DNA from: an uncultured Anaerolineales bacterium
Lineage (GTDB): Bacteria; Planctomycetota; Phycisphaerae; FEN-1346
NCBI GenBank assembly: GCA_964461715.1
Contig: CAYWVR010000011.1
Location: forward strand, 11,289 to 75,288
Direction: 5' to 3'
Length of the DNA stretch: 64,000 bases
The notes below the pieces were generated by a model, which saw only the letters and a list, made by a program, of their open reading frames with translations, ran no database searches and had not been told where the DNA came from. Of the stretch, positions 17,178-31,264 are shown one piece after another. The first letter of the stretch is position 1. The number at the start of each line of letters is the position of its first letter. Both the position numbers and the translations under genes were made by a program.

Positions 17178-17335
17178 GGGCCGATCTCCTCACGGGTCCG
17201 CACGAAGGGGGCCGAAGATGAGCGCGATTCTAGCGCCCGGCCCGCGCCATCGTCAAGCAAAAGCGCGCGGCGCCTTGCCCCCGGCCCCCGGCCTTGCTAC
17301 CGTACCCGGCCCTCACGAACCGGAGACGACCGACC

Positions 17336-18007
17336 ATGCCCACCCGCGCCGTGATCTTTGACATGGACGGCGTCCTGATCGATTCCTACCGGGCCCATTT
17401 CCGGGCTTGGCAGGCCGTCGGCGAACGCCTCGGACGCACCCTCACCGAGGAGGAGTTTGCCGCCACCTTCGGCCGCCGCAACCGCGAAATCTTCCGGACC
17501 CTCTGGGGCGAGGCCATCTCCGACACCGAGGCCGAGAGGCTCGGCGAGTGGAAGGAGAACGTCTACCGCGACCTGCTGCGCGAGGACTTCCCCAAGATGG
17601 ACGGGGCCGAGGACCTCGTGGACGCCCTCGCCGCGGCGGGATTTCGCCTGGCCATCGGCTCCTCCGGGCCGCCCGGGAACATCGAGGTGGCCGTCGAGGG
17701 GCTGGGCCGCCCCGGCGCCTTCGACGCCACCGTCTCCGGGGCCGACGTGACCCACGGCAAGCCGGACCCGGAAGTGTTCCTGACGGCCGCGGAGAAACTG
17801 GGGGTCGAGCCGGCCGCCTGCGCCGTCGTCGAGGACGCCCCCGCCGGCATCGAGGCCGCCCGCCGCGCGGGGATGACGCCCGTCGCCGTCACCGGCACGG
17901 CCCCGCGCAAGGCGCTCGAGGCGGCGGGGGCGGCCCGGGTGGTCGAGTCGCTGCGGGAGCTTTCGCCGGAGGGGCTGGCGGCGCTGATCGATGCGCGGCC
18001 GGCATGA
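17336..18007 (+). CDS. HAD-superfamily hydrolase (beta-phosphoglucomutase-like subfamily IA)
   Basis: AVIFDMDGVLIDS is HAD motif I; GSSG is motif II; HGKPDPEVF is the lysine motif; VEDAPAGIEAARRAG is motif IV. ATG 17336 follows GGAG. Confidence 0.8.
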   Translation: MPTRAVIFDMDGVLIDSYRAHFRAWQAVGERLGRTLTEEEFAATFGRRNREIFRTLWGEAISDTEAERLGEWKENVYRDLLREDFPKMDGAEDLVDALAAAGFRLAIGSSGPPGNIEVAVEGLGRPGAFDATVSGADVTHGKPDPEVFLTAAEKLGVEPAACAVVEDAPAGIEAARRAGMTPVAVTGTAPRKALEAAGAARVVESLRELSPEGLAALIDARPA

Positions 18008-18104
18008 CCCCTCGCCTTGGGTGGGGTGGGTCTCTGGACCCATCGCGGCATCTCGGCAGGTCCGCCGCGCCATCGGTCGGTGTCGGGTTCGCGGCTCGGG
18101 GAAC

Positions 18105-19124
18105 CTACATGACGCGCACCTTCACCCGCCGGCCCGTCCGGCTCGACTGCATCGCCGCGAACACCATCGCCAGGCTCTTGATGTTGTCGTGGCACTCGCA
18201 CTGGGGCATGCGGCCGCGGCGGAGGTAGGCGAGCATCTCGCGCAGGGCCCCGTGCATCCCCCCGCATTTCATCTGAACGGAGGCGAGCTTGACGGACCGC
18301 CGGGGTCGCTCGAACCCTTCGTCCCGGGTGACGACCTCGCCCCAGGGGTCGTGGTCCGACTCGTAGAGGAGGGCCCCGCGGGTGCCCTGGACCCGCCAGT
18401 CGCCGTTCCAACTCGTGCGCGGCCCCTCGGCGCACCACGAGCCGCGGTAGGCGAACCGCACGCCGCCGGTCATCTCGAAGACGGCGTTGGCCGCGACGTC
18501 GCCGGCGTACCACGAGCCCTCCGGGTTGAACTCCTCGCACCAGACGGCCACGGGGTCGACGTCGCCGATCATGCGGGCCATGTCGAAGTGGTGAATGGCC
18601 ATATCCAGAATGAGCGGACTCTCCATTTCCGCCCGGAAGCCCCCGAAGTGGGCCGCGAGGAAGAAGTCGCAGTTCAGCGTCGTCGGCGTCCCGATCGTCC
18701 CGCGCCGCACCGTGCGGGCGAGCGACTCGTGCATCGCGTTCCAGCGGCGACTCTGGCTGACCATGTAGAGGCGGTCGGCCGCCTCGCTCGCCTTGACCAT
18801 CCGCCGCCCCTTGGCCATCGACGAGGCCATCGGCTTCTCGCCGATGACGTGAAGGCCCGCCTTCAGACACGCGCAGGTGACCCGGGCGTGGGCCTCGGGC
18901 GTCGTCAGGTCGACGGCAAAGTCGGCCTCGGCGTCCCGGAGGGTCTTCGCGAGATCCTCCGAGGCGACCGTCCCGGCCAGCTCGTATGTCTCGACGGCCG
19001 CCTCGGCCTTCTCGAGGTCCAGGTCGACGACGGCGGCGATCTCGACCTTCTCCTTCTTCAGCGGCGGGAACCAGGCCCGGCTGATCCCTCCCGCCCCCAC
19101 GACGACGGCGCGCGGCTTGGGCAT
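18105..19124 (-). CDS. Gfo/Idh/MocA-family NAD(P)-dependent oxidoreductase
   Basis: MPKPRAVVVGAGGISRAW is an N-terminal Rossmann motif; EKPMA is the family motif; 339 aa. CAT 19122-19124 is preceded on the minus strand by GGGAGGAAG. The ORF-track extension to 19967 is rejected (Arg/Asp nonsense). Confidence 0.8.
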   Translation of the reverse strand: MPKPRAVVVGAGGISRAWFPPLKKEKVEIAAVVDLDLEKAEAAVETYELAGTVASEDLAKTLRDAEADFAVDLTTPEAHARVTCACLKAGLHVIGEKPMASSMAKGRRMVKASEAADRLYMVSQSRRWNAMHESLARTVRRGTIGTPTTLNCDFFLAAHFGGFRAEMESPLILDMAIHHFDMARMIGDVDPVAVWCEEFNPEGSWYAGDVAANAVFEMTGGVRFAYRGSWCAEGPRTSWNGDWRVQGTRGALLYESDHDPWGEVVTRDEGFERPRRSVKLASVQMKCGGMHGALREMLAYLRRGRMPQCECHDNIKSLAMVFAAMQSSRTGRRVKVRVM

Positions 19125-19241
19125 GCGATCTTCCTCCCTATGGCGAGCAGGCGCCGTGATACGCCCCCCGTGTGGGCCGAGCAAGCTTTTTCGGACCTTT
19201 CGGCTTGTCGGCGGGCCCGGGGCGGGATTAGGATGGGGCCC

Positions 19242-20003
19242 ATGACCGAGACCGCTCAACCCTTCCGGCTCGACGGACGCGTCGCCCTGGTCACCGGGGC
19301 GGGGCGGGGGATCGGGCGAGGCGCGGCCGAGGCGCTCGCGCGGGCGGGGGCCGACGTCGCCCTCGTTGCCCGTACCGAGGCCGAGCTCGAGGAGGTCGCC
19401 GCCGCGCTTCCCACGCGCGGCCTCGTCCTGCCGGCCGACGTCACGGACCTCGCCTGCCACGAAGGGCTCGTCGAGCGGACCGTCCGCGAGCTGGGCGGCC
19501 TGGACGTCGTCGTCGCCTGCGCGGGGACGACCCTGCGCGTCCCGGCCGAAGAGATGACCCCCGAGGACTTCGCGCGCGTGATGGACCTCAACGTCACGGG
19601 CCTCGTGTTCCTGGTGCAGAAGGCCGCCCGGGTGATGCTCGATCGTGGCCGGGGGCGCGTCATCCTCATCGCCAGCCTCCTCTCGGAGATCGGGCGCGGC
19701 GAGAACGCCCCGTACGCGGCGTCGAAGGGGGCCGTCCGGCAGCTCGTCAAGCAGCTCGCGGTCGAATGGTCGCCGCGCGGCGTGACCGTCAACGGCATCG
19801 GCCCGGGGTACATCGACACGCAGCTCGTCGCGCGGCTGCGGGACGACCCCGAGTTCAACCGGTGGCTCATGGACCGCGTCGCCGTCGGCCGCTGGGGCAC
19901 GCCGCACGACGTCGGGGCGGCGGCGGTCTACCTCGCCGGCGACGAGGCCTCGTACGTGACCGGCCACATCCTGTACGTCGATGGGGGGTTCCTGGCGAAG
20001 TAG
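19242..20003 (+). CDS. short-chain dehydrogenase/reductase (SDR, KduD/FabG-like)
   Basis: VALVTGAGRGIGRG is the TGxxxGxG motif; NAPYAASKGAV is the YxxxK motif; PGYIDT is also present. An alternative start at 19233 is possible. Confidence 0.85.
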   Translation: MTETAQPFRLDGRVALVTGAGRGIGRGAAEALARAGADVALVARTEAELEEVAAALPTRGLVLPADVTDLACHEGLVERTVRELGGLDVVVACAGTTLRVPAEEMTPEDFARVMDLNVTGLVFLVQKAARVMLDRGRGRVILIASLLSEIGRGENAPYAASKGAVRQLVKQLAVEWSPRGVTVNGIGPGYIDTQLVARLRDDPEFNRWLMDRVAVGRWGTPHDVGAAAVYLAGDEASYVTGHILYVDGGFLAK

Positions 20004-20084
20004 CTCGTGCGCGTTTTTGGTGGCAGCGCCCGGTCGCGGCGCGTATCATGGCCGGCCCGAAGCGACAGGCGCAAGGAGCGGATC

Positions 20085-20321
20085 ATGGGCATCCCCGGCT
20101 ATGTCGAGTACCCGCGGCGGGAGTACTGCAAGGACATCCGCTGCCCGATCCAGCACCAGCTCGAGAAGCACGCGCCGGGGTCGCAGGAGCACGAGGGGGT
20201 CCGCTCCATCTGCAAGACCGAGTGCATCCACACCACCTACGAGTTCCATCACTGGCTCATCGATCACGGCTACGAGATCGTGCGGCCCGCCGAGACGGCG
20301 CCGGCCGGGCCCGACGCGTAA
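20085..20321 (+). CDS. small (78-aa) cysteine-containing protein, hypothetical
   Basis: ATG 20085 follows AAGGAGCGGATC. GC3-biased codons. Translation MGIPGYVEYPRREYCKDIRCPIQ...ICKTECIHTTYEFHHWLIDHGYEIV has a CxxxxC...CxxxC...HH arrangement. It sits between the SDR and aldolase genes on the same strand. Confidence 0.5.
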   Translation: MGIPGYVEYPRREYCKDIRCPIQHQLEKHAPGSQEHEGVRSICKTECIHTTYEFHHWLIDHGYEIVRPAETAPAGPDA

Positions 20322-20332
20322 AGGAACCCCTC

Positions 20333-21214
20333 ATGCCCGAAGCGAGCGGAAACGAGGGCGCCAAGAACTTCGCCCCCGACGTGCCCCAGACCCAGGACCT
20401 CTTCTTCCTGAAGGGGTCGAACAATCTTGATTGGGGAATGAAGGACCGCCTCGCGCGGATCTTCAACCCGGACTCCGGCCACGCGGTCATGCTCGCCTTC
20501 GACCACGGCTACATCCTCGGGCCCACGTCGGGGCTGGAGCGGATGGACCTGACGATCCGCCCCCTCATCCCCCACGCCGACTGCCTCATGTGCACGCGGG
20601 GGGCCCTGCGGCAGATCGTGCCGGCCACGGCGGGCAAGCCCGTCTCGCTCCGCGTCTCCGCCGGCTCGACGGTGCTGACGGACCTCAACGACGAGATCAT
20701 CATGGACATCGAGGAGGCCGTGCGCCTGAACGCCTCCATCATGGCCGTCATGGTCGCCGTGGGTTCCGTGAAGCACGAGGCGACGACCGTGCGGAACCTG
20801 ACGCGCCTCGTCGACGCCGGCACCCGAGTGGGTATCCCCACGCTCGGCGTGACGGCCGTCGGGAAGGAACTGGTGCGCGACGCCCGGTACCTGGCGATGG
20901 CCTCGCGGGTCTGCGCCGAAAACGGCGCCCACGTCGTCAAGACCTACTTCTGCGAGCCGGGCTTCGAGCAGGTCACCGCCGCGTGCCCCGTGCCCATCGT
21001 CATCGCGGGCGGCAAGAAGGTGCCGGAGAAGGATGCCCTGGGCATCGCCGAGCGGGCCCTGAAGCAGGGGGCCGCCGGCGTCGACATGGGCCGCAATATC
21101 TTCCAGGCCGAGGACCCCGTCGCCATGCTCCGGGCCGTCCGGGCCGTCGTCCACGAGGGACGCTCCGGCGACGAGGCGTTCGAGATGTACCGGGACACCA
21201 AGGGCCGCGCCTAG
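20333..21214 (+). CDS. DhnA-type class I aldolase, LsrF family (DeoC/LacD aldolase superfamily)
   Basis: ATG 20333 follows AAGGAA. Motifs VMLAFDHGY, CLMCTRG, VVKTYF, PVPIVIAGGKK and GVDMGRNIFQ are shared with E. coli LsrF and DhnA-type FBA (identity judged from memory of those sequences). Confidence 0.85.
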   Translation: MPEASGNEGAKNFAPDVPQTQDLFFLKGSNNLDWGMKDRLARIFNPDSGHAVMLAFDHGYILGPTSGLERMDLTIRPLIPHADCLMCTRGALRQIVPATAGKPVSLRVSAGSTVLTDLNDEIIMDIEEAVRLNASIMAVMVAVGSVKHEATTVRNLTRLVDAGTRVGIPTLGVTAVGKELVRDARYLAMASRVCAENGAHVVKTYFCEPGFEQVTAACPVPIVIAGGKKVPEKDALGIAERALKQGAAGVDMGRNIFQAEDPVAMLRAVRAVVHEGRSGDEAFEMYRDTKGRA

Positions 21215-21232
21215 CGCGGCCGCGAGGGACGC

Positions 21233-22288
21233 ATGGCCGCCTCCTTCCCCCTCCCCAAGACCCAGCGGGCCGCCGTCTACTACCGCAACGACGACGTGCG
21301 CATCGAGCACCGCCCCGTTCCCGAGATCGGTCCCGGGGAGGTCCTGGTTCGCATCGGCGCCTCGGGCATCTGCGGCTCGGACGTCCTCGAGTGGTACCGC
21401 ATCAAGAAGGCCCCCATCGTCCTCGGCCATGAGGTGGCGGGGGAGATCGTCCGCGTCGGCGAGGGCGTCACGAAGTTCGCGATCGGCGATCGCGTCGCCG
21501 TCAACCATCACGTCCCGTGCAACACGTGCCGCTACTGCCGGGCGGGCCATCACACGGCCTGCGAGACGCTGCACACGACGGCGTTCGACCCCGGCGGGTT
21601 CTGCGAGTATGTCCGGGTGCCCCCGCTCCAGACGGATCGCGGCGTGTATCCGCTGGCGGCGGGGGTCTCGTTCGAGGAAGGCTCGTTCGCCGAGCCGCTG
21701 GGGTGCGTGCTGCGCGGGCAGCAGAGCGTGGACCGGAAGGCCGGGCAGACGGTGGCGGTGCTCGGGGCGGGGGTCTCGGGCATCCTGCACGTGGCGCTGG
21801 CGAAGGCGCTCGGGGCGGGGCGCATCCTCGCGACGGACATCGACGCGTGGCACCTGGAGCAGGCCCGGCGCTTCGGCGCCGACGAGGCGTTCGACGCGAG
21901 GGAGGGCGACGTGGCGGCGCTTCTTCGGGAGGCCAACGGGGGGCGGGGCCTGGACCTCGTGGTCGTCTGTTGCGGGGCGCTCTCGGCGTTCGAGCAGGGC
22001 CTCGCGGCGGTCGATCGCGGCGGGACGGTCCTATGCTTTGCGACCACCGACCCCGGCGTCGCCCTCGAAGTGCCGCTGAACGATTTCTGGCGAAACGACG
22101 TGACCTTGAAACCGAGCTACGGCAATGCGCCCGCCGACGCCGTCACGGCCCTCGACCTTATCGCCGCCGGCCGCGTCCCCGTCGCCGAGATGATCACCCA
22201 CCGCCTGCCCCTGGAAGAGGCCCGGGAAGGTTTCCGCCTCATGGCCACCCCCGGCGGCCCCTCCCTCAAGGTCGTCCTCGAGCCGTAG
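21233..22288 (+). CDS. zinc-dependent alcohol/polyol dehydrogenase (MDR, threonine/sorbitol dehydrogenase-like)
   Basis: GASGICGSD...GHEVAGEIV is the catalytic Zn site; CNTCRYCRAG is the structural Zn site; VLGAGVSG is the Rossmann motif. Confidence 0.85.
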   Translation: MAASFPLPKTQRAAVYYRNDDVRIEHRPVPEIGPGEVLVRIGASGICGSDVLEWYRIKKAPIVLGHEVAGEIVRVGEGVTKFAIGDRVAVNHHVPCNTCRYCRAGHHTACETLHTTAFDPGGFCEYVRVPPLQTDRGVYPLAAGVSFEEGSFAEPLGCVLRGQQSVDRKAGQTVAVLGAGVSGILHVALAKALGAGRILATDIDAWHLEQARRFGADEAFDAREGDVAALLREANGGRGLDLVVVCCGALSAFEQGLAAVDRGGTVLCFATTDPGVALEVPLNDFWRNDVTLKPSYGNAPADAVTALDLIAAGRVPVAEMITHRLPLEEAREGFRLMATPGGPSLKVVLEP

Positions 22289-22302
22289 CGGCCGTCCAGG
22301 AC

Positions 22303-23358
22303 CTAGAACACCGACTCCCGATACCCGAACTCCTCCGCCACCGCTCGGGTCTCGTCGAGCGTCGTGGCGGCGCCGGTGCAGGTGGGGTCGGAGAGGCAGA
22401 CGGCGGCGGCGGAGACGCCGAGGCGGAGGCTCTCGTCGAGCGGCCACCGCTCGTGGAGGCCGTAGAGGACGCCCGCGCAGAAGGCGTCCCCCGCCCCGGC
22501 CCCGCCGCGGATGTACCCTTCCGGCAGGGCCAGCGACGGTTGCCAGAGCTCCTCTCCGTCGGCCGTCCGGACGTAGCCGCCCTCGGGCAGATGGATGCAG
22601 ACGAGCTTCCCCACGCCCAGGTCCAGCAGGTCCTTCGCCGCGGCGCGGATGGCCGCCGGGTCGGGCTCGTCGCCGGGCTTCAGGTCGCGGCCGGTGGTCT
22701 TGCCGGCCTCGAACTCGTTGAGGATCGCGTAGTCGGCGTGCTTGAGGGCGGGCCGGACGATCTCGGGGAACCGGTCGCTGTCCTCGCTGACGACGTCGAT
22801 GGACGTTTCGATGCCCGCCGCCTGGCATGCCGCCAGCACCCGCGCGGCCACGGTGCCGAACTCGGGGTCGGCCTCGTCGAAGCGGTCCAGGAGCAGGAGG
22901 TACCCGAGGTGGAGGATGCGGGCCCGGATCGTCTCGACGGGCACGTGCTCGGGGCCGAAGCGGGCGTTGGCGCCGCGATTGTGGAAGAAGGTGCGGCGGC
23001 CGGTGGGCTTGGCGACGATGACGAGGGTGTAGCTGGTGGGAGCGTCGGGGTCGGCGCCGAGGGCCGCCCGGTCGATGCGATGGCGGGCGAGGTCGTCGCG
23101 GATGAACTCGCCGTCGGGATCGGCGCCCGTCAGGCCGATGGCCTCGAGGGGCAGGGCCCGGCCCGGCGTGCCGTCGGGCCCCACGGGAGGCCCGAAGCGC
23201 GCCAAGTCCACCAGGCAGTTGTAGGGCGAGCCGCCGGTGCCCCGGCCCTGGTCGAGGATGTTGGCGAGGGTCTCCTCGCGGGGAAAGAGGTCGCAGATGT
23301 AGACGTGGTCGATGATCCAGTTTCCCGCACACGCGATGCCGCGCCGCGTCTTGCTCAT
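22303..23358 (-). CDS. carbohydrate kinase, PfkB/ribokinase family
   Basis: N-terminal GG motif (NILDQGRGTGGSPYN) and C-terminal GAGDAF ATP/anion-hole motif (GGAGAGDAFCAGVLYG); 351 aa. CAT 23356-23358. The ORF-track extension to 23523 is rejected. Confidence 0.8.
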   Translation of the reverse strand: MSKTRRGIACAGNWIIDHVYICDLFPREETLANILDQGRGTGGSPYNCLVDLARFGPPVGPDGTPGRALPLEAIGLTGADPDGEFIRDDLARHRIDRAALGADPDAPTSYTLVIVAKPTGRRTFFHNRGANARFGPEHVPVETIRARILHLGYLLLLDRFDEADPEFGTVAARVLAACQAAGIETSIDVVSEDSDRFPEIVRPALKHADYAILNEFEAGKTTGRDLKPGDEPDPAAIRAAAKDLLDLGVGKLVCIHLPEGGYVRTADGEELWQPSLALPEGYIRGGAGAGDAFCAGVLYGLHERWPLDESLRLGVSAAAVCLSDPTCTGAATTLDETRAVAEEFGYRESVF

Positions 23359-23513
23359 CGGGGGCCCCCTTTCCGGGCTTCGGGCCAAGGTGGGGGCATG
23401 ATAGCGGCCCCGCCGCCGGGCCGCAAGCGGACCTTCGCAGGGGCCTTTTTTCGTTGACAGGTCGCGGCGCGCGGCCGATAGTGGGCCGCCGAGCGGGGCA
23501 CGTGGGCCTATCC

Positions 23514-24752
23514 ATGTCGGCATGGCCGGGTGAAGCGCGGTTCGAGCAGTACCTCCTGGACCACGGTCTCGCGACCGAGGACGAAATCCGGAAGGCCCGG
23601 GAGGCCCTGAAGACCGCCCCCGACGTCGAGGGCCGCCGCCCCACGCTGCCCGAGGCCCTCGTCGTGACCGGGTCGATCACCAAGAGCCAGGCCCGCCGCA
23701 CCCTCAAGGCCATCCAGACCGAGTCCGCCGCGCCCACCGTCCAGGTGCCGGGCATCCAGATCATGGAGCGTCTCGGGCGCGGCAGCCAGGCGGTCGTCTA
23801 CAAGGGCCGCCAAGTCAGCGTCGATCGGATCGTGGCCGTGAAGATCCTCCTGTCGAAGCAGGCTCGCGACCCGGACAACCGACGCCGCTTCATCCAGGAG
23901 GCCAAGGCCGCCGCCAAGCTCAACCATAATAACATTGTCCAGGCCATCGACGCGGGCGAGAGCGAGGGGTACTCGTACTTCATCATGGAATACATCGACG
24001 GGACGACCGTCGAGGATATCCTGAAGAAACAGGTGGGCCCGATCCAGGAGGAAGAGGCCCTCCGCATCATCATCCAGATCGCCGAGGCCCTGGCCCACGC
24101 CCACAAGCGGGGCTTCATCCATCGCGACGTCAAGCCGGCCAACATCATGCTCACCCACGAGGGCGTGGCGAAGCTCGCGGACATGGGCCTCGCGCGCCAG
24201 ACCGCCGACGCCGCCGCCGCTATGGAGGAGGCCGGCAAGGCCTACGGCACGCCCTACTACATCGCCCCGGAGCAGGTGCGCGGCGACCCGAACATCGATT
24301 TCCGGGCCGACATCTACTCCCTCGGGGCCACCTTCTACGAGATGCTGACCGGCCGCCCGCCCTATCAGGCCGCCACCCCCCAAGAGGTCATGCGCAAGCA
24401 CGTCACCGGCACCCTCGCGCCGCCCGACCACGTCAACCCCGACCTCTCGGCGGGCGTCAGCGAGGTGGTCGAGGTCATGATGAGCAAGCGACCAAAGGAC
24501 CGGTACGCCTCGACCGAGGACCTGCTGGTGGACCTGAAGGGCGTCGCTCGCGGCGAGCCGCCCCGCATCGCCCGCGAGAAGGTCGGCATGCAGGACGAGC
24601 TGATGGAGGGCCTGGCGGCAGGAGAGGAACTGGAGGAGGTCGTTCCCCGCGCCGCCGAGCCCGACCCGTTCGCCTTCAACCAGCTCGCCGTCATCCTCGC
24701 CGTCGCGCTCGCGATCTCGATCCTCGTCAACATCCTGCTGGCTATCTTCTGA
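23514..24752 (+). CDS. Ser/Thr protein kinase with C-terminal membrane anchor
   Basis: GRGSQAVVYKG...VAVKIL is the ATP site; HRDVKPANIML is the catalytic loop; DMGLA is the DFG-equivalent; APEQ is also present. C-terminal hydrophobic helix AVILAVALAISILVNILLAIF. Confidence 0.8.
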   Translation: MSAWPGEARFEQYLLDHGLATEDEIRKAREALKTAPDVEGRRPTLPEALVVTGSITKSQARRTLKAIQTESAAPTVQVPGIQIMERLGRGSQAVVYKGRQVSVDRIVAVKILLSKQARDPDNRRRFIQEAKAAAKLNHNNIVQAIDAGESEGYSYFIMEYIDGTTVEDILKKQVGPIQEEEALRIIIQIAEALAHAHKRGFIHRDVKPANIMLTHEGVAKLADMGLARQTADAAAAMEEAGKAYGTPYYIAPEQVRGDPNIDFRADIYSLGATFYEMLTGRPPYQAATPQEVMRKHVTGTLAPPDHVNPDLSAGVSEVVEVMMSKRPKDRYASTEDLLVDLKGVARGEPPRIAREKVGMQDELMEGLAAGEELEEVVPRAAEPDPFAFNQLAVILAVALAISILVNILLAIF

Positions 24753-24938: not shown

Positions 24939-25127
24939 TTACGCGACGGAACGATGCCGCGCGTGGCCGAAGAGGCCCAGAATCAGCAGCACGACGAAGA
25001 CGACGAGGAAAATCCAGAACAGGACCTCCGCGACGTCTGCCGCGGCCGCCGAGATGCCTCCGAAGCCGAAAAAGCCGGCGATCAGGGCGACTACGAAGAA
25101 GATCAACGCCCACTTGAGCAAGCCCAT
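24939..25127 (-). CDS. DUF1328/UPF0391-family small membrane protein
   Basis: [46 protein letters not shown] matches the UPF0391 consensus (LKWA.IFL.IALIAG.LGFGGIAGAAAGIAKILFFIFLV). Confidence 0.8.
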
Positions 25128-25341
25128 GGTCTGACCTTTCCACGCTCGGATTCGTTTCCAGTTGCGGCCCCCATTCTACGGGCTCCGAGGCGGCGGCGAA
25201 TGAGGGCCGATGCCCGAATCGGCCCCCGACGCTTGCCGGAATTATAATGGGGGCAGGCCCGAGGTCGGGCAGGGGAATGGCCATAAATGCGGGACCGCGG
25301 TGGCGCCACCGCGGCTCATCACCACCGCTCACGGCGCCGGC

Positions 25342-26163
25342 TCACGCGCGCTGCGTCGAGGCCCGGGTCGTGATGCCGGTGGGTGGTAGAAGGATGGGAC
25401 CCTCGGGCGGCGCCTCCCCCGACATCAAGCGGTCCAGCACCGCCGCCCCCTCGTGGCCTACCTCATCGAGCGGCAACGCGACGCTCGAAAGGGTGGGGCG
25501 GGCCATGCGGCAGAGGAGATCGTCGTCGTCGACGCCGAGGATCGCGACGTCCTGCGGCACCTTTGCGCCGATGCGGCGGCAGGCCTCCAGCACGGACACG
25601 GCGCGCGTGTCGTTGCAGGCCATCACGCCGACGGGCCTGGCGAGCCCTTCGAGCCACCGGGCGATGTCCTGCTGCGCCCCGTCCCAGCTCCAGTCGAGTC
25701 GAATTGCCGGGTCCGGCTCGTAGGCGCTCACCTCGAAGCCCGCCTCCTCGACCCGCCCGGCGTAACCCGCGCCCCGCCGGTCCGAAAAGCCGAACCCCGG
25801 GAACCCGCAGTACGCGAACCGCTCCAGGCCCAGATTCAGGAGGTGCTCGGCCCCCAGGCGCCCCGCGGCCCTCGGGTCCGGGATGACCTGCGGCAAGGGA
25901 GCGTCGGCCAGGGTGCCGGAGACGTTCACCGCCGCCACGCCGCGCTCGGCCATGGCCCGGGCGACGCGTTCGCGGCGGACGTTGGCCAGGATGCCGTCGG
26001 GTTCCCAATCGAGAATCTCGGGGAAGTCGACGCCCGGCTGGAACTGCGTGGAGAAGACCCAGGAGGGCTTATCCTCGGCATAGCGGGCCACACCGGCGGC
26101 AATTCCGCGATGATAGCTCTGGTTAACGGGGATGAGCATCGCCACGCGCACAAGATGGGCCAT
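25342..26163 (-). CDS. XylR-type periplasmic-binding-protein-like sugar-sensor domain protein that lacks the AraC HTH (truncated paralog of the next gene)
   Basis: MAHLVRVAMLIP.. aligns along its whole length with residues 1-270 of the downstream XylR-like regulator (VNVS, RFA.CG, VMACND, LEACRR, VLGVD..., PLSSV). It stops where the paralog's AraC-type HTH begins. CAT 26161-26163 is preceded on the minus strand by GGAGGGG. Confidence 0.7.
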   Translation of the reverse strand: MAHLVRVAMLIPVNQSYHRGIAAGVARYAEDKPSWVFSTQFQPGVDFPEILDWEPDGILANVRRERVARAMAERGVAAVNVSGTLADAPLPQVIPDPRAAGRLGAEHLLNLGLERFAYCGFPGFGFSDRRGAGYAGRVEEAGFEVSAYEPDPAIRLDWSWDGAQQDIARWLEGLARPVGVMACNDTRAVSVLEACRRIGAKVPQDVAILGVDDDDLLCRMARPTLSSVALPLDEVGHEGAAVLDRLMSGEAPPEGPILLPPTGITTRASTQRA

Positions 26164-26257
26164 CGTCGCCCCTCCACGGGAGGCACGTTCGTCACGTCTC
26201 CCATTATAGGGCAAACCGGCCCCCGAGGGGGATCGCGCGTCAGGCGACCGCGACGCG

Positions 26258-27412
26258 CTAACAGACCCGGTTCTGCATCCGGAAATCGGTGGGCGTCATG
26301 CCCGTCTCGCGCTTGAAAATCTGAGAGAGGATCTGGGCGCGGCGGAAGCCGGACCGCTCGGCCACCGCGGGCATGGGAAGGTCCGTCTCCACCAGTATCT
26401 GCCGTGCACGCTCCAGGTGAACCCGCCGGATCTCGTCGCGCGGCGATCGCTGGAGCTTCTCGCGGAACCGTCGCTCCAGGCTCCGACGCGACACGCCCGC
26501 GGCCGTCACCACGTCCGGCACGTCGATGGGGTGGCCGGCGTGCTCGCGGATGTAGCGCAGCGCCTCGACGACCGCCTCGTCCTCGACGGCCATGACGTCG
26601 GTCGACGGGCGGGCGATGACCCCCATCGGGGCGAACGTGACCGGCTTCTTCGGGGCGGCCTTGCCCTTCCACAAGCGGGCCAGCATCGCCGCCGCCTCGT
26701 ACCCGATCTTCTCGAGCGGCTGGACCACGCTCGAGAGGGGCGGCAGGGCCAACTCGCACATGACCGGGTCGTTGTCCACGCCGAGCACCGCCACGTCCTC
26801 CGGCACCTGGAGGTCGGCTCGGCGGCAGGCCTCCAGCACGTCGAAGGCCCGCACGTCGTTGCAGGCCATCAGGGCCACCGGCTTCTGGAGCGACCCGAGC
26901 CACGCCACCAGGCTCTCCTGCTCCTTCTCCAGCGTCCAGTCCGTGCCGGGCACGTGCGGCTCGGCGTAGGACTCGACCGTGCAGCCCAGCTCGCGGATGC
27001 GGGCCTCGAAGCCCTGTTGCCGCCCCGCGGACATGCCCAGGCCCTGGTACCCGCAGAACGCGAAGCGCTCGAAGCCGCGGGCCTTGAAATGGTCGGCGCC
27101 GACCCGGCCGATGGCGTGGCCGTCGCTGATGACCCGCGGAAGCCGCCCGTCCGGGGCGGAGGCCGAGACGTTCACCGCCGGGACGCCCTTCTCGATCGCC
27201 GCGTCGACGACCTCGGCGTGGTGCGTCTGGAGGAGGAACCCGTCGGGGTCCCAGTCGCGAATCCAGCCCAGCCGCGGGCGGTACCCGTGGAGCTGAATAG
27301 ACAGGGCCCAGGGCCCGTGGGTCCGGCTGTACTGAGCGATACCTCGCATCAGGCCCCGCCCGTAGGCGTCGCCGGCGGCAATGAACAGGCCCACGCGCTT
27401 CAGGTCAGCCAT
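26258..27412 (-). CDS. XylR-like transcriptional regulator (sugar-binding domain + AraC-family HTH)
   Basis: N-terminal PBP-like domain; C-terminal AraC HTH (YIREHAGHPIDVPDVVTAAGVSRRSLERRF...ERSGFRRAQILSQIFKRETGMTPTDFR). CAT 27410-27412 is preceded on the minus strand by GGAGG. Confidence 0.8.
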   Translation of the reverse strand: MADLKRVGLFIAAGDAYGRGLMRGIAQYSRTHGPWALSIQLHGYRPRLGWIRDWDPDGFLLQTHHAEVVDAAIEKGVPAVNVSASAPDGRLPRVISDGHAIGRVGADHFKARGFERFAFCGYQGLGMSAGRQQGFEARIRELGCTVESYAEPHVPGTDWTLEKEQESLVAWLGSLQKPVALMACNDVRAFDVLEACRRADLQVPEDVAVLGVDNDPVMCELALPPLSSVVQPLEKIGYEAAAMLARLWKGKAAPKKPVTFAPMGVIARPSTDVMAVEDEAVVEALRYIREHAGHPIDVPDVVTAAGVSRRSLERRFREKLQRSPRDEIRRVHLERARQILVETDLPMPAVAERSGFRRAQILSQIFKRETGMTPTDFRMQNRVC

Positions 27413-27757
27413 GATTTGTGCCTCCATCGAGTGCGCAAGGTCGCATCATACCGCGTGACGGTTTTGCCGCAAAAGAAGAAAACTTCTGCGCATAAACTTA
27501 TTGTCCCCGGCCCGCCCGGGCGTCGACAATAGGGTCGCCCCGATCCCAGCAGCGCAAGGGGCGGAGCGGGCGGTCCATGCGGCCGCCCGCTCGCTTTCCC
27601 GGCCTGTCCCGGGAAGGCCGGGCTATGCAGGGCAAGCCATCGCGGCGGCGAAACGGACCCGGGGGCCTGCGGGCGCTCAAGGGGCCGGTCGGCACTTTCA
27701 TGCGCCGCCCCGGTCGGTATAATGGCCGCTTCACCCGACCGGCCGGGGGAGGATGCG

Positions 27758-28489
27758 ATGACCCGACGCCAAGCCGTCCTGATGCTCGTCCTCGGCGGCG
27801 CCCTTGCCGGCGCCCTGGTTCTCGTGTACGTTCTCGCGCTGCCGGCCGAGGTCGCCTGGTCGACGAACCGGGTCCTCCATCACGCCTGGCAGGCCGTCGT
27901 GGCCCTGGCCGGGGCGGGCGGGGCCGTCTGGAGCCTCTGGCCCCGCGCCAAGGCCCGCCGCCGCGACGTCGAACGCGAGCGGACCCGCCGCCGGGCCATT
28001 GCCTTCGCGGGCGTCGTCGTGGCCGCAGTGCTCTTGGTGATCCTCGTCGAGCCGTGGCGCGACTCGTGGACGCGGGACTTCCTCGATCGGACCGCCTCGA
28101 GCGACCTGGTGACCATCGGCGACGCCCTCCGCCGCTACGGGACCGACCACGAGGACGCCGACCCGCCGACGCTGGCGGCCCTCGTGCCGGCGTACCTGGA
28201 GCGGGAGGCCCTGTACTACGCCTATCGCGAGGGACCGTGGGAGGCCCCGCCGCCGCCGCACGACGCCGCGCTTCGCCCGAGCTACGTCCTGGCCCCGGCC
28301 CTGAAACCCGACCGGGGCGACAAGCCCCGCGAGACGCGCATCCTCGTCTACCTCCGTCCCGGGCAGGCCTGGTCGCCCATGACGATCCTCCTGGACCGCG
28401 ACGGCGCAATCCACCTGCGGGGCGAGGATATCGTGGAGGTGTTCGAGGAGCAGTTGGCGGATCAGGAGCAGGACGGGCCGCCAAAATGA
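27758..28489 (+). CDS. hypothetical membrane protein (2-3 TM helices)
   Basis: ATG 27758 follows GGGGGAGG. A candidate -10 TATAAT at 27716-27721 would place the upstream ATG 27722 before the TSS. Hydrophobic helices (AVLMLVLGGALAGALVLVYVLAL; AIAFAGVVVAAVLLVILV). No known family. Confidence 0.4.
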   Translation: MTRRQAVLMLVLGGALAGALVLVYVLALPAEVAWSTNRVLHHAWQAVVALAGAGGAVWSLWPRAKARRRDVERERTRRRAIAFAGVVVAAVLLVILVEPWRDSWTRDFLDRTASSDLVTIGDALRRYGTDHEDADPPTLAALVPAYLEREALYYAYREGPWEAPPPPHDAALRPSYVLAPALKPDRGDKPRETRILVYLRPGQAWSPMTILLDRDGAIHLRGEDIVEVFEEQLADQEQDGPPK

Positions 28490-28512: not shown

Positions 28513-30339
28513 TTATTCGGGCTTCGTCATGGTTTCGTCATTCGGGTTTCGGGCGTTGTCATTCCGGCCTGAGGGCACGTCGCCGCCCGCCTCGTCTCCC
28601 TCGCCCCGCAGCCGCGCGATCGCCTGGCGGGCCTCCTCGGCGGCCTTCGTGTTCGGGTAGACGTTGAGGACGCCCTGGTAGGCGGTGATCTGGTTGAGGA
28701 TGTCGTCGGTCGCCCCCTCGTAGCGGCGGGCCTCCTCGAGCTTGATCTGCGCGTTCTCCTCCATGAGGTCGCGCGGTGACTCGGTCGGCGTCTCGGGGGG
28801 CCTCTGCGTCGGCGTCTCGGGGGGCTTCTGCGTTGGCGTCTCTGGGGGCCTCTGCGTTGGCGTCTCTGGGGGCCTCTGCGTCGGCGTCTCGGCCGGGGTT
28901 TGCGGCGGGGTTTCGATGGGCGTCTCGGGGGGCGTCTCGGGACCATCGCCGGGCGTGACGACGGCGCTCAATCCGCCCTTTGGGGCCAGGACATAGGCCA
29001 CCACCGCCGCCGCCCCCACCAGCGCCAGCGCCGCCGCCACGATCAGCGCCACGAGCCGCCATCCCGAGAGCCATCGTCGCGGCTTCGCGTCTTCCTCGTT
29101 CGCCTTCGCCGAGGCGGCCGTCAGCCGCACCCGCTGGCTCCGCCGCACGGCCCGGCCCAGGGCCCGCGACAGGTGCGACCCGCGGTCCTCCGGGGCGATG
29201 CGCCCGAGCTGCGAGCTCAGGGCCTGCGGCGTCGGGGTGCCCGACTCGTCCGTGGCGCTGAAATCCAGCCGGTCCAGCATCTCGACAAATTCCTCGGCCG
29301 TCACGTACCGGTCCTCCGGCAGCTTGGCCATGGCCTTCTGGAAGAACCGGAAGACGGCCACGGGCAGCGTCGGCACGTGCCTGCGCGGGTCGGGGACGGG
29401 GGCCTGGACGTGCATCCGCATCATCTGCCGGTCGTTCTCGGCGTCGAACGGGGCCCGCCCCGTCAGCAGCACGTAATACGTCGCGGCCAGGGAGTAGAGG
29501 TCGCTGGCGGCGGTGGGCTCCTCGCCGAGGGCCTGCTCGGGGGCCATGTACCGGGGCGTGCCGAGGCTGTGGCCCGGGCCGACGATGTCGTGGCCCTGCA
29601 GGACGTCGCGGGCCAGGCCGAAGTCGCTGACCTTGACCTGCCCGTCGTTGGTCATCATGATGTTGCCGGGCTTGATATCCCGATGGATCACGCCGCGCTT
29701 GTGCGCGTGGGCCAGGCCCTCCGCCGCCACCCGGATGATCCGCGTCGCCTCCGCCGGGCGGAACCGCTTCTGCACGGCCAGGAACTCGTGCAGGGCCCCC
29801 CCGTCGACCAGCTCCATGACGATGTAGAACGTGTCCTCGTAGGGCACGATCTGGTGGATGGTGACGATGTTCGGGTGCGAGAGCTTCGCGGCGCTTCGGG
29901 CCTCCCGCAGGAACCGGTTGATCAGCCGCTCGCCCTCCTTCGCCAGCTTGGGCGGCAGCATCTTCAGGGCGACCGACCGCTCCAGGCTCACGTCGAACGC
30001 CCGGTACACGACGCCGAACCCGCCCGTTCCGATGCGGCTCTGGATGCGAAAGCCGTTGACGTCCGCCCCCACGAGGGGATCGCTGACGTCCTCGCGCGGC
30101 GTGGGGACGGGACGGACGGGGGCGGGGGGACGCTCGGGAGCGGGGGGGGCCTTCGCACCGGCGGGGGGCGAAGGGGCGGCCTGCGCCGGGGACTTCCGAT
30201 CACGCGCCCGGGCCGGCGTCCAGCGGTGCCCACACGAGCGGCACACCACCTCCGTCTCGGCCAGGTCCTTGTGGATCTTGTACCCGACGTGACACTGCGG
30301 GCACGCCAGCAGCAGATAGCCCGTTTGACCTTCCGCCAT
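28513..30339 (-). CDS. Ser/Thr protein kinase with N-terminal zinc ribbon, TM segment, PT-repeat linker and C-terminal TPR-like domain
   Basis: Start MAEGQTGYLLLACPQCH...CRSCGH is a CxxC...CxxC zinc ribbon; CAT 30337-30339. Kinase motifs GTGGFGVVYRA, HRDIKPGNIMM, DFGLA, APEQ. TM helix LVALIVAAALALVGAAAVVAYVLA. (ETPTQRPP)n repeat, then a C-terminal helical region. The ORF-track extension to 30882 is rejected. Confidence 0.85.
   Translation of the reverse strand: MAEGQTGYLLLACPQCHVGYKIHKDLAETEVVCRSCGHRWTPARARDRKSPAQAAPSPPAGAKAPPAPERPPAPVRPVPTPREDVSDPLVGADVNGFRIQSRIGTGGFGVVYRAFDVSLERSVALKMLPPKLAKEGERLINRFLREARSAAKLSHPNIVTIHQIVPYEDTFYIVMELVDGGALHEFLAVQKRFRPAEATRIIRVAAEGLAHAHKRGVIHRDIKPGNIMMTNDGQVKVSDFGLARDVLQGHDIVGPGHSLGTPRYMAPEQALGEEPTAASDLYSLAATYYVLLTGRAPFDAENDRQMMRMHVQAPVPDPRRHVPTLPVAVFRFFQKAMAKLPEDRYVTAEEFVEMLDRLDFSATDESGTPTPQALSSQLGRIAPEDRGSHLSRALGRAVRRSQRVRLTAASAKANEEDAKPRRWLSGWRLVALIVAAALALVGAAAVVAYVLAPKGGLSAVVTPGDGPETPPETPIETPPQTPAETPTQRPPETPTQRPPETPTQKPPETPTQRPPETPTESPRDLMEENAQIKLEEARRYEGATDDILNQITAYQGVLNVYPNTKAAEEARQAIARLRGEGDEAGGDVPSGRNDNARNPNDETMTKPE
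28787..28906 (-). repeat. in-frame 24-bp tandem repeat (x5) encoding the (P)ETPTQRPP linker of the kinase
   Basis: Plus-strand units cggcgtctcggggggcctctgcgt at 28787, 28811, 28835, 28859 and a degenerate copy at 28883. It is coding, not a CRISPR array. Confidence 0.8.
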
Positions 30340-30610
30340 GCGCGTTCGCCTGGACCGGGGTTCCGTGCGGCCGCGATAGGAGTGGTACAAGCTCGCACCA
30401 GCACCGGCCGCCACCCAGCATTCTACGTGCCTTTGGGGTCCGGTCAAACAGAAACGCTCAAGGCACGGTGAATACACGAACCCCGCCCGCGTACCCGACG
30501 ATGACCGAGCCGCGCGAAAAGGTTTGCAGCCGCGCCGATGGGGGACTAGGATTCTGTCAGGCGCGGGCCGCCCCGCGCTCTCCTCGGTCCCGGAGACGGG
30601 AGACGCTGCC

Positions 30611-31264
30611 ATGCTCGAGTGGTGGAACGCCCTGACCACGGCGAACCAGATGTTCTTCGGCATCGCCGCCTTCTTCTCGGTCCTGTTTGTCTGGCAGTTC
30701 ATCATGACGCTGATTGGCCTGGCCGGCCACGAGGCCGACTTCGAGGCCGAGGCCGCCGACGCCGACCTGGCCGCCGACGTCGACGCGGCCGACGCGGCCG
30801 ACGCGGGAGATTTCGATGCCGCCGACACGGCCATGAGCTTCCGGCTCCTCTCGTTCCGCTCGGTCATCACGGGCGGGCTCATGTTCGGCTGGGCCGGGTC
30901 CCTCTACCTTTACAGCGGGGTGCCCCTGGAGCCGGCCCTCCTCTACGCCATCAGCTGGGCCGTCGCCGGGGCCCTGATCATCGCGGTGCTCCTTTACTTC
31001 ATGCGACGGCTCCAGGAGACCGGCACGCCGCGCCTCGCCACCTGTCTCGGCAAGCCCGCCACGGTCTACATGGACATCCCGAAGGACGGGGCGGGCCGCA
31101 TCCGCACCGTCGTCTCGGGGGCCCTGAGTTTCGTGGCGGCCCGGGGGGCGGGCGGCAAGGCGATCCGGGCCGGGACGCCCGTGCGCGTGCGACGGCTCCT
31201 CGATACCCACACGGTCGAGGTCGACACGGTTCCCGACGACACGAAGGAGACCCCCGATGCATGA
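30611..31264 (+). CDS. NfeD-like membrane protein (short form, flotillin-associated)
   Basis: ATG 30611. Two N-terminal TM helices, an acidic linker and a C-terminal OB-fold-like segment (GKPATVYMDIPKDGAGRIRTVVSGALSFVAARGAGGKAIRAGTPVRVRRL). Its stop overlaps the flotillin start. Confidence 0.7.
   Translation: MLEWWNALTTANQMFFGIAAFFSVLFVWQFIMTLIGLAGHEADFEAEAADADLAADVDAADAADAGDFDAADTAMSFRLLSFRSVITGGLMFGWAGSLYLYSGVPLEPALLYAISWAVAGALIIAVLLYFMRRLQETGTPRLATCLGKPATVYMDIPKDGAGRIRTVVSGALSFVAARGAGGKAIRAGTPVRVRRLLDTHTVEVDTVPDDTKETPDA

Follow-up and report, generated by a model that had tools for sequence, protein, structure and literature searches.

The gene pair and the boundary of the short gene

The 64-kb stretch of DNA analysed here (contig CAYWVR010000011.1; hereafter the window, 70% GC, intergenic share 24%) carries two adjacent minus-strand genes related to XylR of Escherichia coli. 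One encodes a full-length regulator; the other, 94 bp downstream on the same strand, encodes a sensor domain that lacks the DNA-binding helix-turn-helix (HTH), and this short gene may serve as a modulator of its neighbour. The two genes occupy different frames and have separate stop codons. No further XylR-like genes were found in the window. The features of the pair are as follows.

26258-27412, minus strand: full-length XylR-family regulator, 384 amino acids, recognised by its Pfam domains and XylR alignment
about 26597-27412, minus strand: sensor domain of the full-length gene, of the periplasmic-binding-protein (PBP) type
about 26258-26596, minus strand: linker and AraC-type double HTH of the full-length gene
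26164-26257, minus strand: 94-bp spacer between the two genes, holding a ribosome-binding site and a promoter-like element
26169-26175, minus strand: ribosome-binding site GGAGGGG of the short gene, 5 nt before its ATG
25342-26163, minus strand: short gene, an HTH-less paralog of 273 amino acids, apparently a stand-alone XylR-type sensor/dimerisation domain, recognised by Peripla_BP_3 and XylR alignment
25128-25341, minus strand: spacer of 214 bp that follows the short gene; HTH-coding sequence would be expected here, and no remnant was found by translation and tblastn

The XylR family, whose members are AraC-type regulators that carry a LacI/GalR-type sensor, was founded on E. coli XylR, and the full-length protein shares the two-domain layout of that protein over its whole length. 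The full-length protein aligns with it essentially end to end (4FE4, residues 7-387, E 4e-51) and matches Peripla_BP_3 (1.4e-39) and HTH_18 (1.5e-19), which bears out the PBP-like domain and AraC HTH assigned to it in a preliminary description of this DNA. The GC content at third codon positions (GC3) of the gene is 0.94, and GGAGG (27421-27425) lies 8 nt before its ATG. Judged from the sequence, the full-length gene is complete on its own.

The short protein matches Peripla_BP_3 (9.7e-38), shows a weak PBP1_XylR match, and aligns with XylR 4FE4 over residues 7-278 (E 5e-30); no Pfam HTH was detected in it. In E. coli XylR, the sensor comprises residues 1-274, the linker residues 275-284, and the DNA-binding domain residues 285-389 (PMC3561964). 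Because the alignment extends to residue 278, the short protein ends inside the inter-domain linker, and its C-terminus lies 3 residues past the conserved Ser-Thr with which the sensor ends. The rest of the XylR linker and the whole DNA-binding domain are thus missing, and the stop falls at the domain boundary, in agreement with the preliminary description, which had the protein ending where the HTH would begin. That description had also called the short gene a paralogous PBP-like domain with its own ribosome-binding site that is not a frameshifted continuation of its neighbour. All three statements hold: the short protein is 44% identical to the full-length protein over 273 residues of the sensor (E 2e-78), GGAGGGG precedes its ATG, and the genes differ in frame, the short one having its own stop and the neighbour being complete. 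By its architecture, the short protein would be classed as a derivative of the XylR family and not as a member.

An artefact, in which an assembly or sequencing error split or truncated one gene or a secreted solute-binding protein was called wrongly, is very improbable as an explanation. Frameshift errors do occur in metagenome-derived assemblies, as in locus L078 (5650-7133), where a frameshift at the junction of sensor and HTH splits an XylR-like gene of a long-read metagenome-assembled genome. At the present locus, however, a second assembly, the Logan assembly of SRR7048227, matches at 99.96%, with 1 mismatch in the 2737 bp that span both genes; the mismatch lies at 26870, inside the full-length gene, and the encoded short protein is identical. 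The full-length gene needs nothing to complete it, and no HTH-coding sequence follows the short gene in any frame. Three-frame translation of the 214 bp downstream gave no HTH remnant, and a permissive tblastn search with the neighbour's linker and HTH gave a best E of only 1.2 in a 700-bp target. The short protein begins directly at strand beta1 (model residues 5-10; aligned to XylR residue 7) with neither signal peptide nor lipobox, and no transporter genes, of the ABC type or otherwise, were found within 10 kb.

A more serious explanation is that the short gene is a non-functional relic, in which a recent deletion of about 350-400 bp took the linker end, the HTH and the old stop and left a product that is inert or mildly interfering. 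We regard this as quite possible, if rather short of an even chance, and as hardly less probable than a role as modulator. The anatomy of the gene speaks partly against it: the open reading frame (ORF) closes cleanly in the linker with a tail of just 3 residues, at 70% GC, where stops in other frames are rare; no trace of the HTH is left; and there are no internal frameshifts or stops, GC3 still being 0.88 (0.82-0.96 in the other window genes). The marks of a pseudogene, namely internal frameshifts or stops and out-of-frame remnants, are therefore absent. A very recent clean deletion is still compatible with an uninterrupted ORF that is free of remnants, and the promoter, ribosome-binding site, pocket and fold could all be inherited from an intact ancestor. 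A search for long inverted repeats flanking the short gene, which would be a sign of a mobile cassette, found none.

Relationship and distribution of the two genes

A neighbour-joining tree was built on 234 sensor domains, and the two genes were sisters in just 5 of 100 bootstraps. A triplet test was also performed, in which exclusively shared residues were counted among the short protein, the full-length protein and each of 231 relatives (X). The pairing of short with full was favoured over short with X in 226 of the 231 triplets, and that of full with short over full with X in 217. The signal persisted after Ala, Gly, Arg and Pro were removed, and no comparable affinity was seen for four relatives of similar Ala/Gly/Arg/Pro content (P0016, P0191, P0108 and P0207). 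The one clade that groups with both genes is that of P0002. The short and full-length proteins are equally divergent from the family (mean identity 0.40). On these results the two genes are old paralogs of one subfamily, compatible with an ancient tandem duplication. A recent tandem duplication was rejected.

The distribution of the pair was investigated in several databases. In a word-indexed search of 5.8 billion clustered proteins, no orthologs of either protein were found: each retrieved only itself, and the next best matches had 45-47% identity. These relatives carry the HTH, with the exception of P0060, which is a contig-end partial; P0017 and P0114 are full length (384 amino acids) with an HTH region that is disrupted or poorly aligned. 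When 1.84 billion representatives were searched exhaustively with HMMER, the short protein remained a singleton. The neighbour was essentially tied for the best single-domain score (239.5 vs 240.6 bits). A metagenome scan gave no match above 38% identity.

In addition, 80 related loci from GTDB species genomes were surveyed with our own PBP and HTH hidden Markov models. Each locus had one XylR-type gene, with the HTH in the same ORF at 78 of the 80; at one of the remaining two the gene runs off the contig, and at the other it is frameshifted. A tandem XylR pair occurred at none of the 80 loci, and none shared the genes that flank the pair in the window. The dozen or so short entries looked at among the 150 best representatives were contig-end fragments, had frameshift-like tails, or had a full-length mate in their 90% cluster. 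When five short entries were looked up by cluster, four were singletons and one, P0302 (314 amino acids), shared its 90% cluster with the full-length P0379 (384 amino acids). To judge from these searches, headless XylR domains form no recognisable conserved class, and L078 and P0302 are examples of sporadic HTH loss by error or decay.

These results speak for the relic explanation. The short gene is a singleton without conserved HTH-less relatives, and all its closest relatives are full length, including P0244, which gives the best match over part of the protein (53% identity over residues 98-271, with a 112-residue tail). Moreover, truncated or frameshifted XylR-like genes turn up sporadically elsewhere (L078; P0302 compared with P0379; P0279, P0317 and P0337). 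The preliminary description had proposed to check whether the pair is conserved across genomes, full-length orthologs of the short gene pointing to a simple recent truncation or pseudogene. Neither outcome was seen: no headless ortholog lends support to the pair, and no full-length ortholog refutes it. Because the lineage, which is planctomycete-like to judge by the organisms in which the nearest homologs occur, is unsampled, the absence of orthologs is uninformative.

Two complete XylR-type units are fused in P0234 and P0382 (786-800 amino acids; a cluster of 5, on contigs of up to 24 kb). Each unit consists of a sensor domain and an AraC HTH, and these proteins are the top-scoring match to the short protein. 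Tandem duplication of XylR therefore occurs elsewhere in another form.

Sensor domain, expression signals and neighbourhood

An AlphaFold model of the short protein, computed as a single chain from a 16-sequence alignment, showed the full two-lobed fold (predicted local distance difference test 93.1, predicted template-modelling score 0.90). Its best match in the Protein Data Bank (PDB) was apo XylR 4FE4, with a template-modelling (TM) score of 0.83, so that the sensor fold is shared. The xylose-contacting residues of E. coli XylR are Tyr18, Asp65, Trp135, Arg139, Asp219 and Gln237 (PMC3561964). The equivalents of Tyr18, Arg139 and Asp219 are near-invariant in the 231 relatives (Tyr in 85%) and are retained in both proteins, in the short one as Y17, R130 and D212. 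The variable positions of the pocket differ, with R63, F126 and L230 in the short protein vs H64, M127 and Q231 in its neighbour; over the six contact positions the residues are Y, R, F, R, D, L and Y, H, M, R, D, Q, respectively. Unlike E. coli XylR, neither protein has Asp65 or Trp135, the short protein also lacks Gln237, and no xyl genes lie near the pair. The combination of contact residues and xyl linkage that characterises D-xylose-responsive XylR is thus found in neither protein. On these residues, neither looks xylose-specific, and the two probably bind different ligands.

The variable pocket set of the short protein resembles that of the full-length P0002 clade. The full-length proteins nearest to the short one form the P0380 cluster (45% identity), which is encoded divergently from a GH10 xylanase gene (L082, 6469-9146). 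This cluster shares the Arg and Phe pocket residues of the short protein and stands beside a xylanase, which hints at a xylan-derived ligand. Among full-length relatives on long contigs P0380 is the closest, and no synteny with the window was found for it.

The short protein keeps 88% of the 41 columns that are conserved in at least 90% of the relatives, which puts it in the lowest tail of the family, a point in favour of a relic. The family median and the neighbour both stand at 98%, and E. coli XylR at 73%. At a threshold of 80% (69 columns), the short protein keeps 80% and the neighbour 87%. Its departures from conserved residues are about twice as frequent in beta1, alpha1, beta2 and alpha10, on which the DNA-binding domain of the partner chain docks in E. 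coli XylR, although Fisher tests of this clustering are not significant (p 0.11-0.25). In alpha10, in a comparison made post hoc, 5 of the 10 conserved columns are changed, more than in any of the 231 relatives; one of these columns corresponds to Tyr244, a residue in contact with Glu355' in the E. coli protein. Such clustering on the docking helix speaks, weakly, against a very recent loss. It gives a weak hint that the sensor domain may have been without a DNA-binding domain for some time, with its ORF intact throughout. In the segments of the dimer interface, identity between the two proteins is 62% in alpha7, 33% in beta10 and 39% in alpha1.

The signals that may drive and control expression of the pair are the following.

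26199-26208, minus strand: TATAAT-GGGA promoter-like element, 36-44 nt upstream of the short gene's ATG
27413-27531, unstranded: AT-rich stretch ahead of the full-length gene, taken as its control region and defined by GC content, palindromes and an inverted repeat; its functions are putative
27445-27450, minus strand: TATGAT, a -10-like hexamer
27462-27474: palindrome TTTTGCCGCAAAA, unique in the window
27474-27487: palindrome AGAAGAAAACTTCT, without a second copy in the window
27499-27531: inverted repeat TATTGTC-N19-GACAATA with perfect 7-bp arms, unique in the window

The hexamer TATAAT is rare, with 7 occurrences in the 64 kb, 5 of which are intergenic, and may be a promoter mark in this organism. 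The longer motif TATAATGGG has exactly two copies in the window (0.03 expected), at 25243-25251 on the plus strand and at 26200-26208 on the minus strand, and these bracket the short gene in inverted orientation. The left copy lies within the palindrome ATTATAAT, and could thus serve either the DUF1328 gene or an antisense transcript. A sigma-70 scan found no canonical promoter, and a terminator scan found no terminator-like site between the two genes. With a promoter-like element of its own and no terminator in between, the short gene could be transcribed both from its putative promoter and by read-through from its neighbour. The predicted fold of the 94-nt spacer RNA is more stable than those of shuffles (-61.6 kcal/mol, z = -2.3), and its stem pairs the GGAGGGG ribosome-binding site of the short gene.

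Upstream of the full-length gene, the GC content falls to 0.50 (27400-27499), compared with 0.70 for the window. The preliminary description was right that this region is AT-rich and contains small palindromes; their suggested role as operators found no support. No second copy of either palindrome was found in an operator search of the window, and TTTTGCCGCAAAA is not above chance, since one match or more, with up to 2 mismatches allowed, turned up in 19 of 100 shuffles. The 11-mer matches to other intergenic regions look like chance. The TATTGTC/GACAATA pair was matched in 0 of 100 shuffles, and this repeat makes a stronger candidate for an operator than either small palindrome. It is placed in the divergent intergenic region between the regulator and a hypothetical membrane protein gene. 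In this unsampled lineage there are no orthologous promoters to compare, and for that reason none of these elements can be called an operator.

The gene that follows the short gene encodes a DUF1328 membrane protein of 62 amino acids (24939-25127). The neighbours comprise HAD, Gfo/Idh/MocA, zinc-dependent alcohol dehydrogenase (Zn-ADH), PfkB, kinase and DUF1328 genes; no xylA, xylB or xylFGH is among them. At 17234-23361, 2-8 kb from the pair, genes for a HAD hydrolase, a Gfo/Idh/MocA oxidoreductase, a Zn-ADH and a PfkB sugar kinase form a possible sugar or polyol catabolic cluster that would be a candidate regulon. The Gfo/Idh/MocA oxidoreductase has an N-terminal extension of about 300 residues without a Pfam match. 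Two Ser/Thr protein kinase genes bracket the pair (23454-24752, plus strand; 28513-30882, minus strand), and the larger kinase has, beyond its kinase domain, a tandem repeat rich in Pro and Thr (ETPTQRPP and similar). In a hypothetical gene of 255 amino acids, the first ATG (27722) lies inside TATAATG (region 27718-27760). From the sequence, the real start is more likely Met13, at about 27758, some 36 nt downstream, in which case this TATAAT would be the -10 element of that gene.

The pocket and the surroundings of the short gene allow a further explanation, namely that its product works by itself as a cytoplasmic ligand-binding protein, either as a homodimeric ligand buffer or as the sensor of some other partner. 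AmiC, which sequesters AmiR, is a model for the latter. The intact pocket that differs from the neighbour's would suit such a role, as would a promoter-like element by which co-expression with the neighbour is not required. At 44% identity the two proteins may be too dissimilar to form mixed dimers, and genes for two Ser/Thr kinases and for enzymes of sugar or polyol metabolism are close by. On the other hand, no partner can be identified, the gene neighbourhood is not conserved, and no family of such proteins was found. We consider this explanation improbable.

Proposed role of the short gene and known parallels

Our tentative preference is for the short gene as a functional headless modulator that acts on its neighbour in some way, although we would put this at somewhat less than an even chance. 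The proposed course of events is that an ancestral XylR-family regulator lost its AraC-type DNA-binding domain by a deletion specific to this lineage, while an intact, foldable sensor/dimerisation domain was retained, along with promoter-like and ribosome-binding signals of its own. On this view the short protein is made and, without touching DNA, acts by way of the antiparallel PBP-PBP surface on which XylR dimerises. XylR pairs for the most part by antiparallel contacts between sensor domains (PMC3561964), and a headless copy could therefore in principle form mixed dimers. The two DNA-binding domains of XylR lie at opposite ends of the dimer, each docked on the partner's sensor, and ligand binding remodels the interface (PMC3561964).

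The most likely form of action would be mixed dimers with the neighbour, which would carry one DNA-binding domain instead of two. Dimers of the XylR type need both DNA-binding domains to bridge two operator sites, so that the mixed form would be severely impaired. In that case the short protein might be an anti-activator or a second-input co-sensor responding to a ligand other than the neighbour's. We hold this specific mixed-dimer mechanism to be rather less likely than not. The fuller version, in which the short protein is a ligand-gated anti-activator that supplies a second sugar input through one-headed mixed dimers, seems to us about as likely.

Heterodimeric modulation is plausible by analogy with TrlR, CerN and SinI. 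LuxR-type and SinR-type systems, as well as plant microProteins, provide known cases of headless paralogs that poison or gate a full-length factor. In Bacillus subtilis, the genes for SinI and SinR are adjacent, and SinI, which is homologous to the oligomerisation part of SinR, antagonises it by forming a heteromer. SinI is peptide-like, has no ligand pocket and is conserved across Bacillus, whereas the short protein keeps a whole sensor domain. The similarity between TrlR and TraR lies much above 44% identity. TrlR, a protein of Agrobacterium without a DNA-binding domain, blocks the LuxR-type regulator TraR by forming inactive mixed complexes with it (PMC3907764). In the CerN/CerM system of Cereibacter, also of LuxR type, the paralog CerN, which has no DNA-binding domain, likewise blocks the full-length factor through inactive mixed complexes, and does so in a ligand-dependent manner (PMC11655674). 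Like TrlR and CerN, the short protein is a sensor paralog without a DNA-binding domain, 44% identical to its presumed partner and encoded 94 bp from it. The fold differs, however, being LuxR there and PBP/AraC here, and the interaction is demonstrated in those systems, while here it is a proposal.

A parallel closer in fold is offered by the negative-dominant (I-d) alleles of lacI and the headless core of the Lac repressor, which still oligomerise and poison mixed oligomers. The Lac repressor core structure 1TLF is among the PDB matches of both proteins. The I-d alleles are laboratory mutants of the same gene, with 100% identity, parallel dimers and an N-terminal headpiece. Here, in contrast, a natural separate gene is found, with 44% identity and a C-terminal DNA-binding domain on an antiparallel dimer. 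The I-d mutants show that the principle is sound, but we know of no natural case of a headless paralog in the very large PBP-fold LacI/GalR/XylR superfamily, and a literature search turned up none.

Several observations weigh against a functional modulator. The short form is a singleton without orthologs, and no tandem pair was seen in the 80 loci; the other HTH-less XylR-like entries are consistent with sporadic decay. Its 88% retention of conserved columns, against a family median of 98%, could mean relaxed constraint, and the pattern on the docking elements lacks significance, as noted above. Mixed dimers are not assured at 44% identity, with interface segments ranging from 33 to 62%. Above all, every sign of intactness in the short gene is also to be expected after a recent deletion. 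Sequence features alone do not separate a modulator from a relic left by such a deletion, because the two make near-identical predictions.

In sum, the pair represents an architecture new to a known family and is seen in one unsampled lineage. As the case is inseparable from a recent deletion, its value is that of a cheap and well-defined experimental lead and not of a discovery. If the short protein does act as a modulator, it would, as far as we know, be the first instance of headless-paralog logic of the TrlR/SinI kind in the PBP-fold LacI/XylR superfamily. It would also show how a tandem duplication followed by the mere loss of a domain can give rise to two-input sugar logic, and it would provide a ready-made part for the engineering of sugar-responsive circuits.

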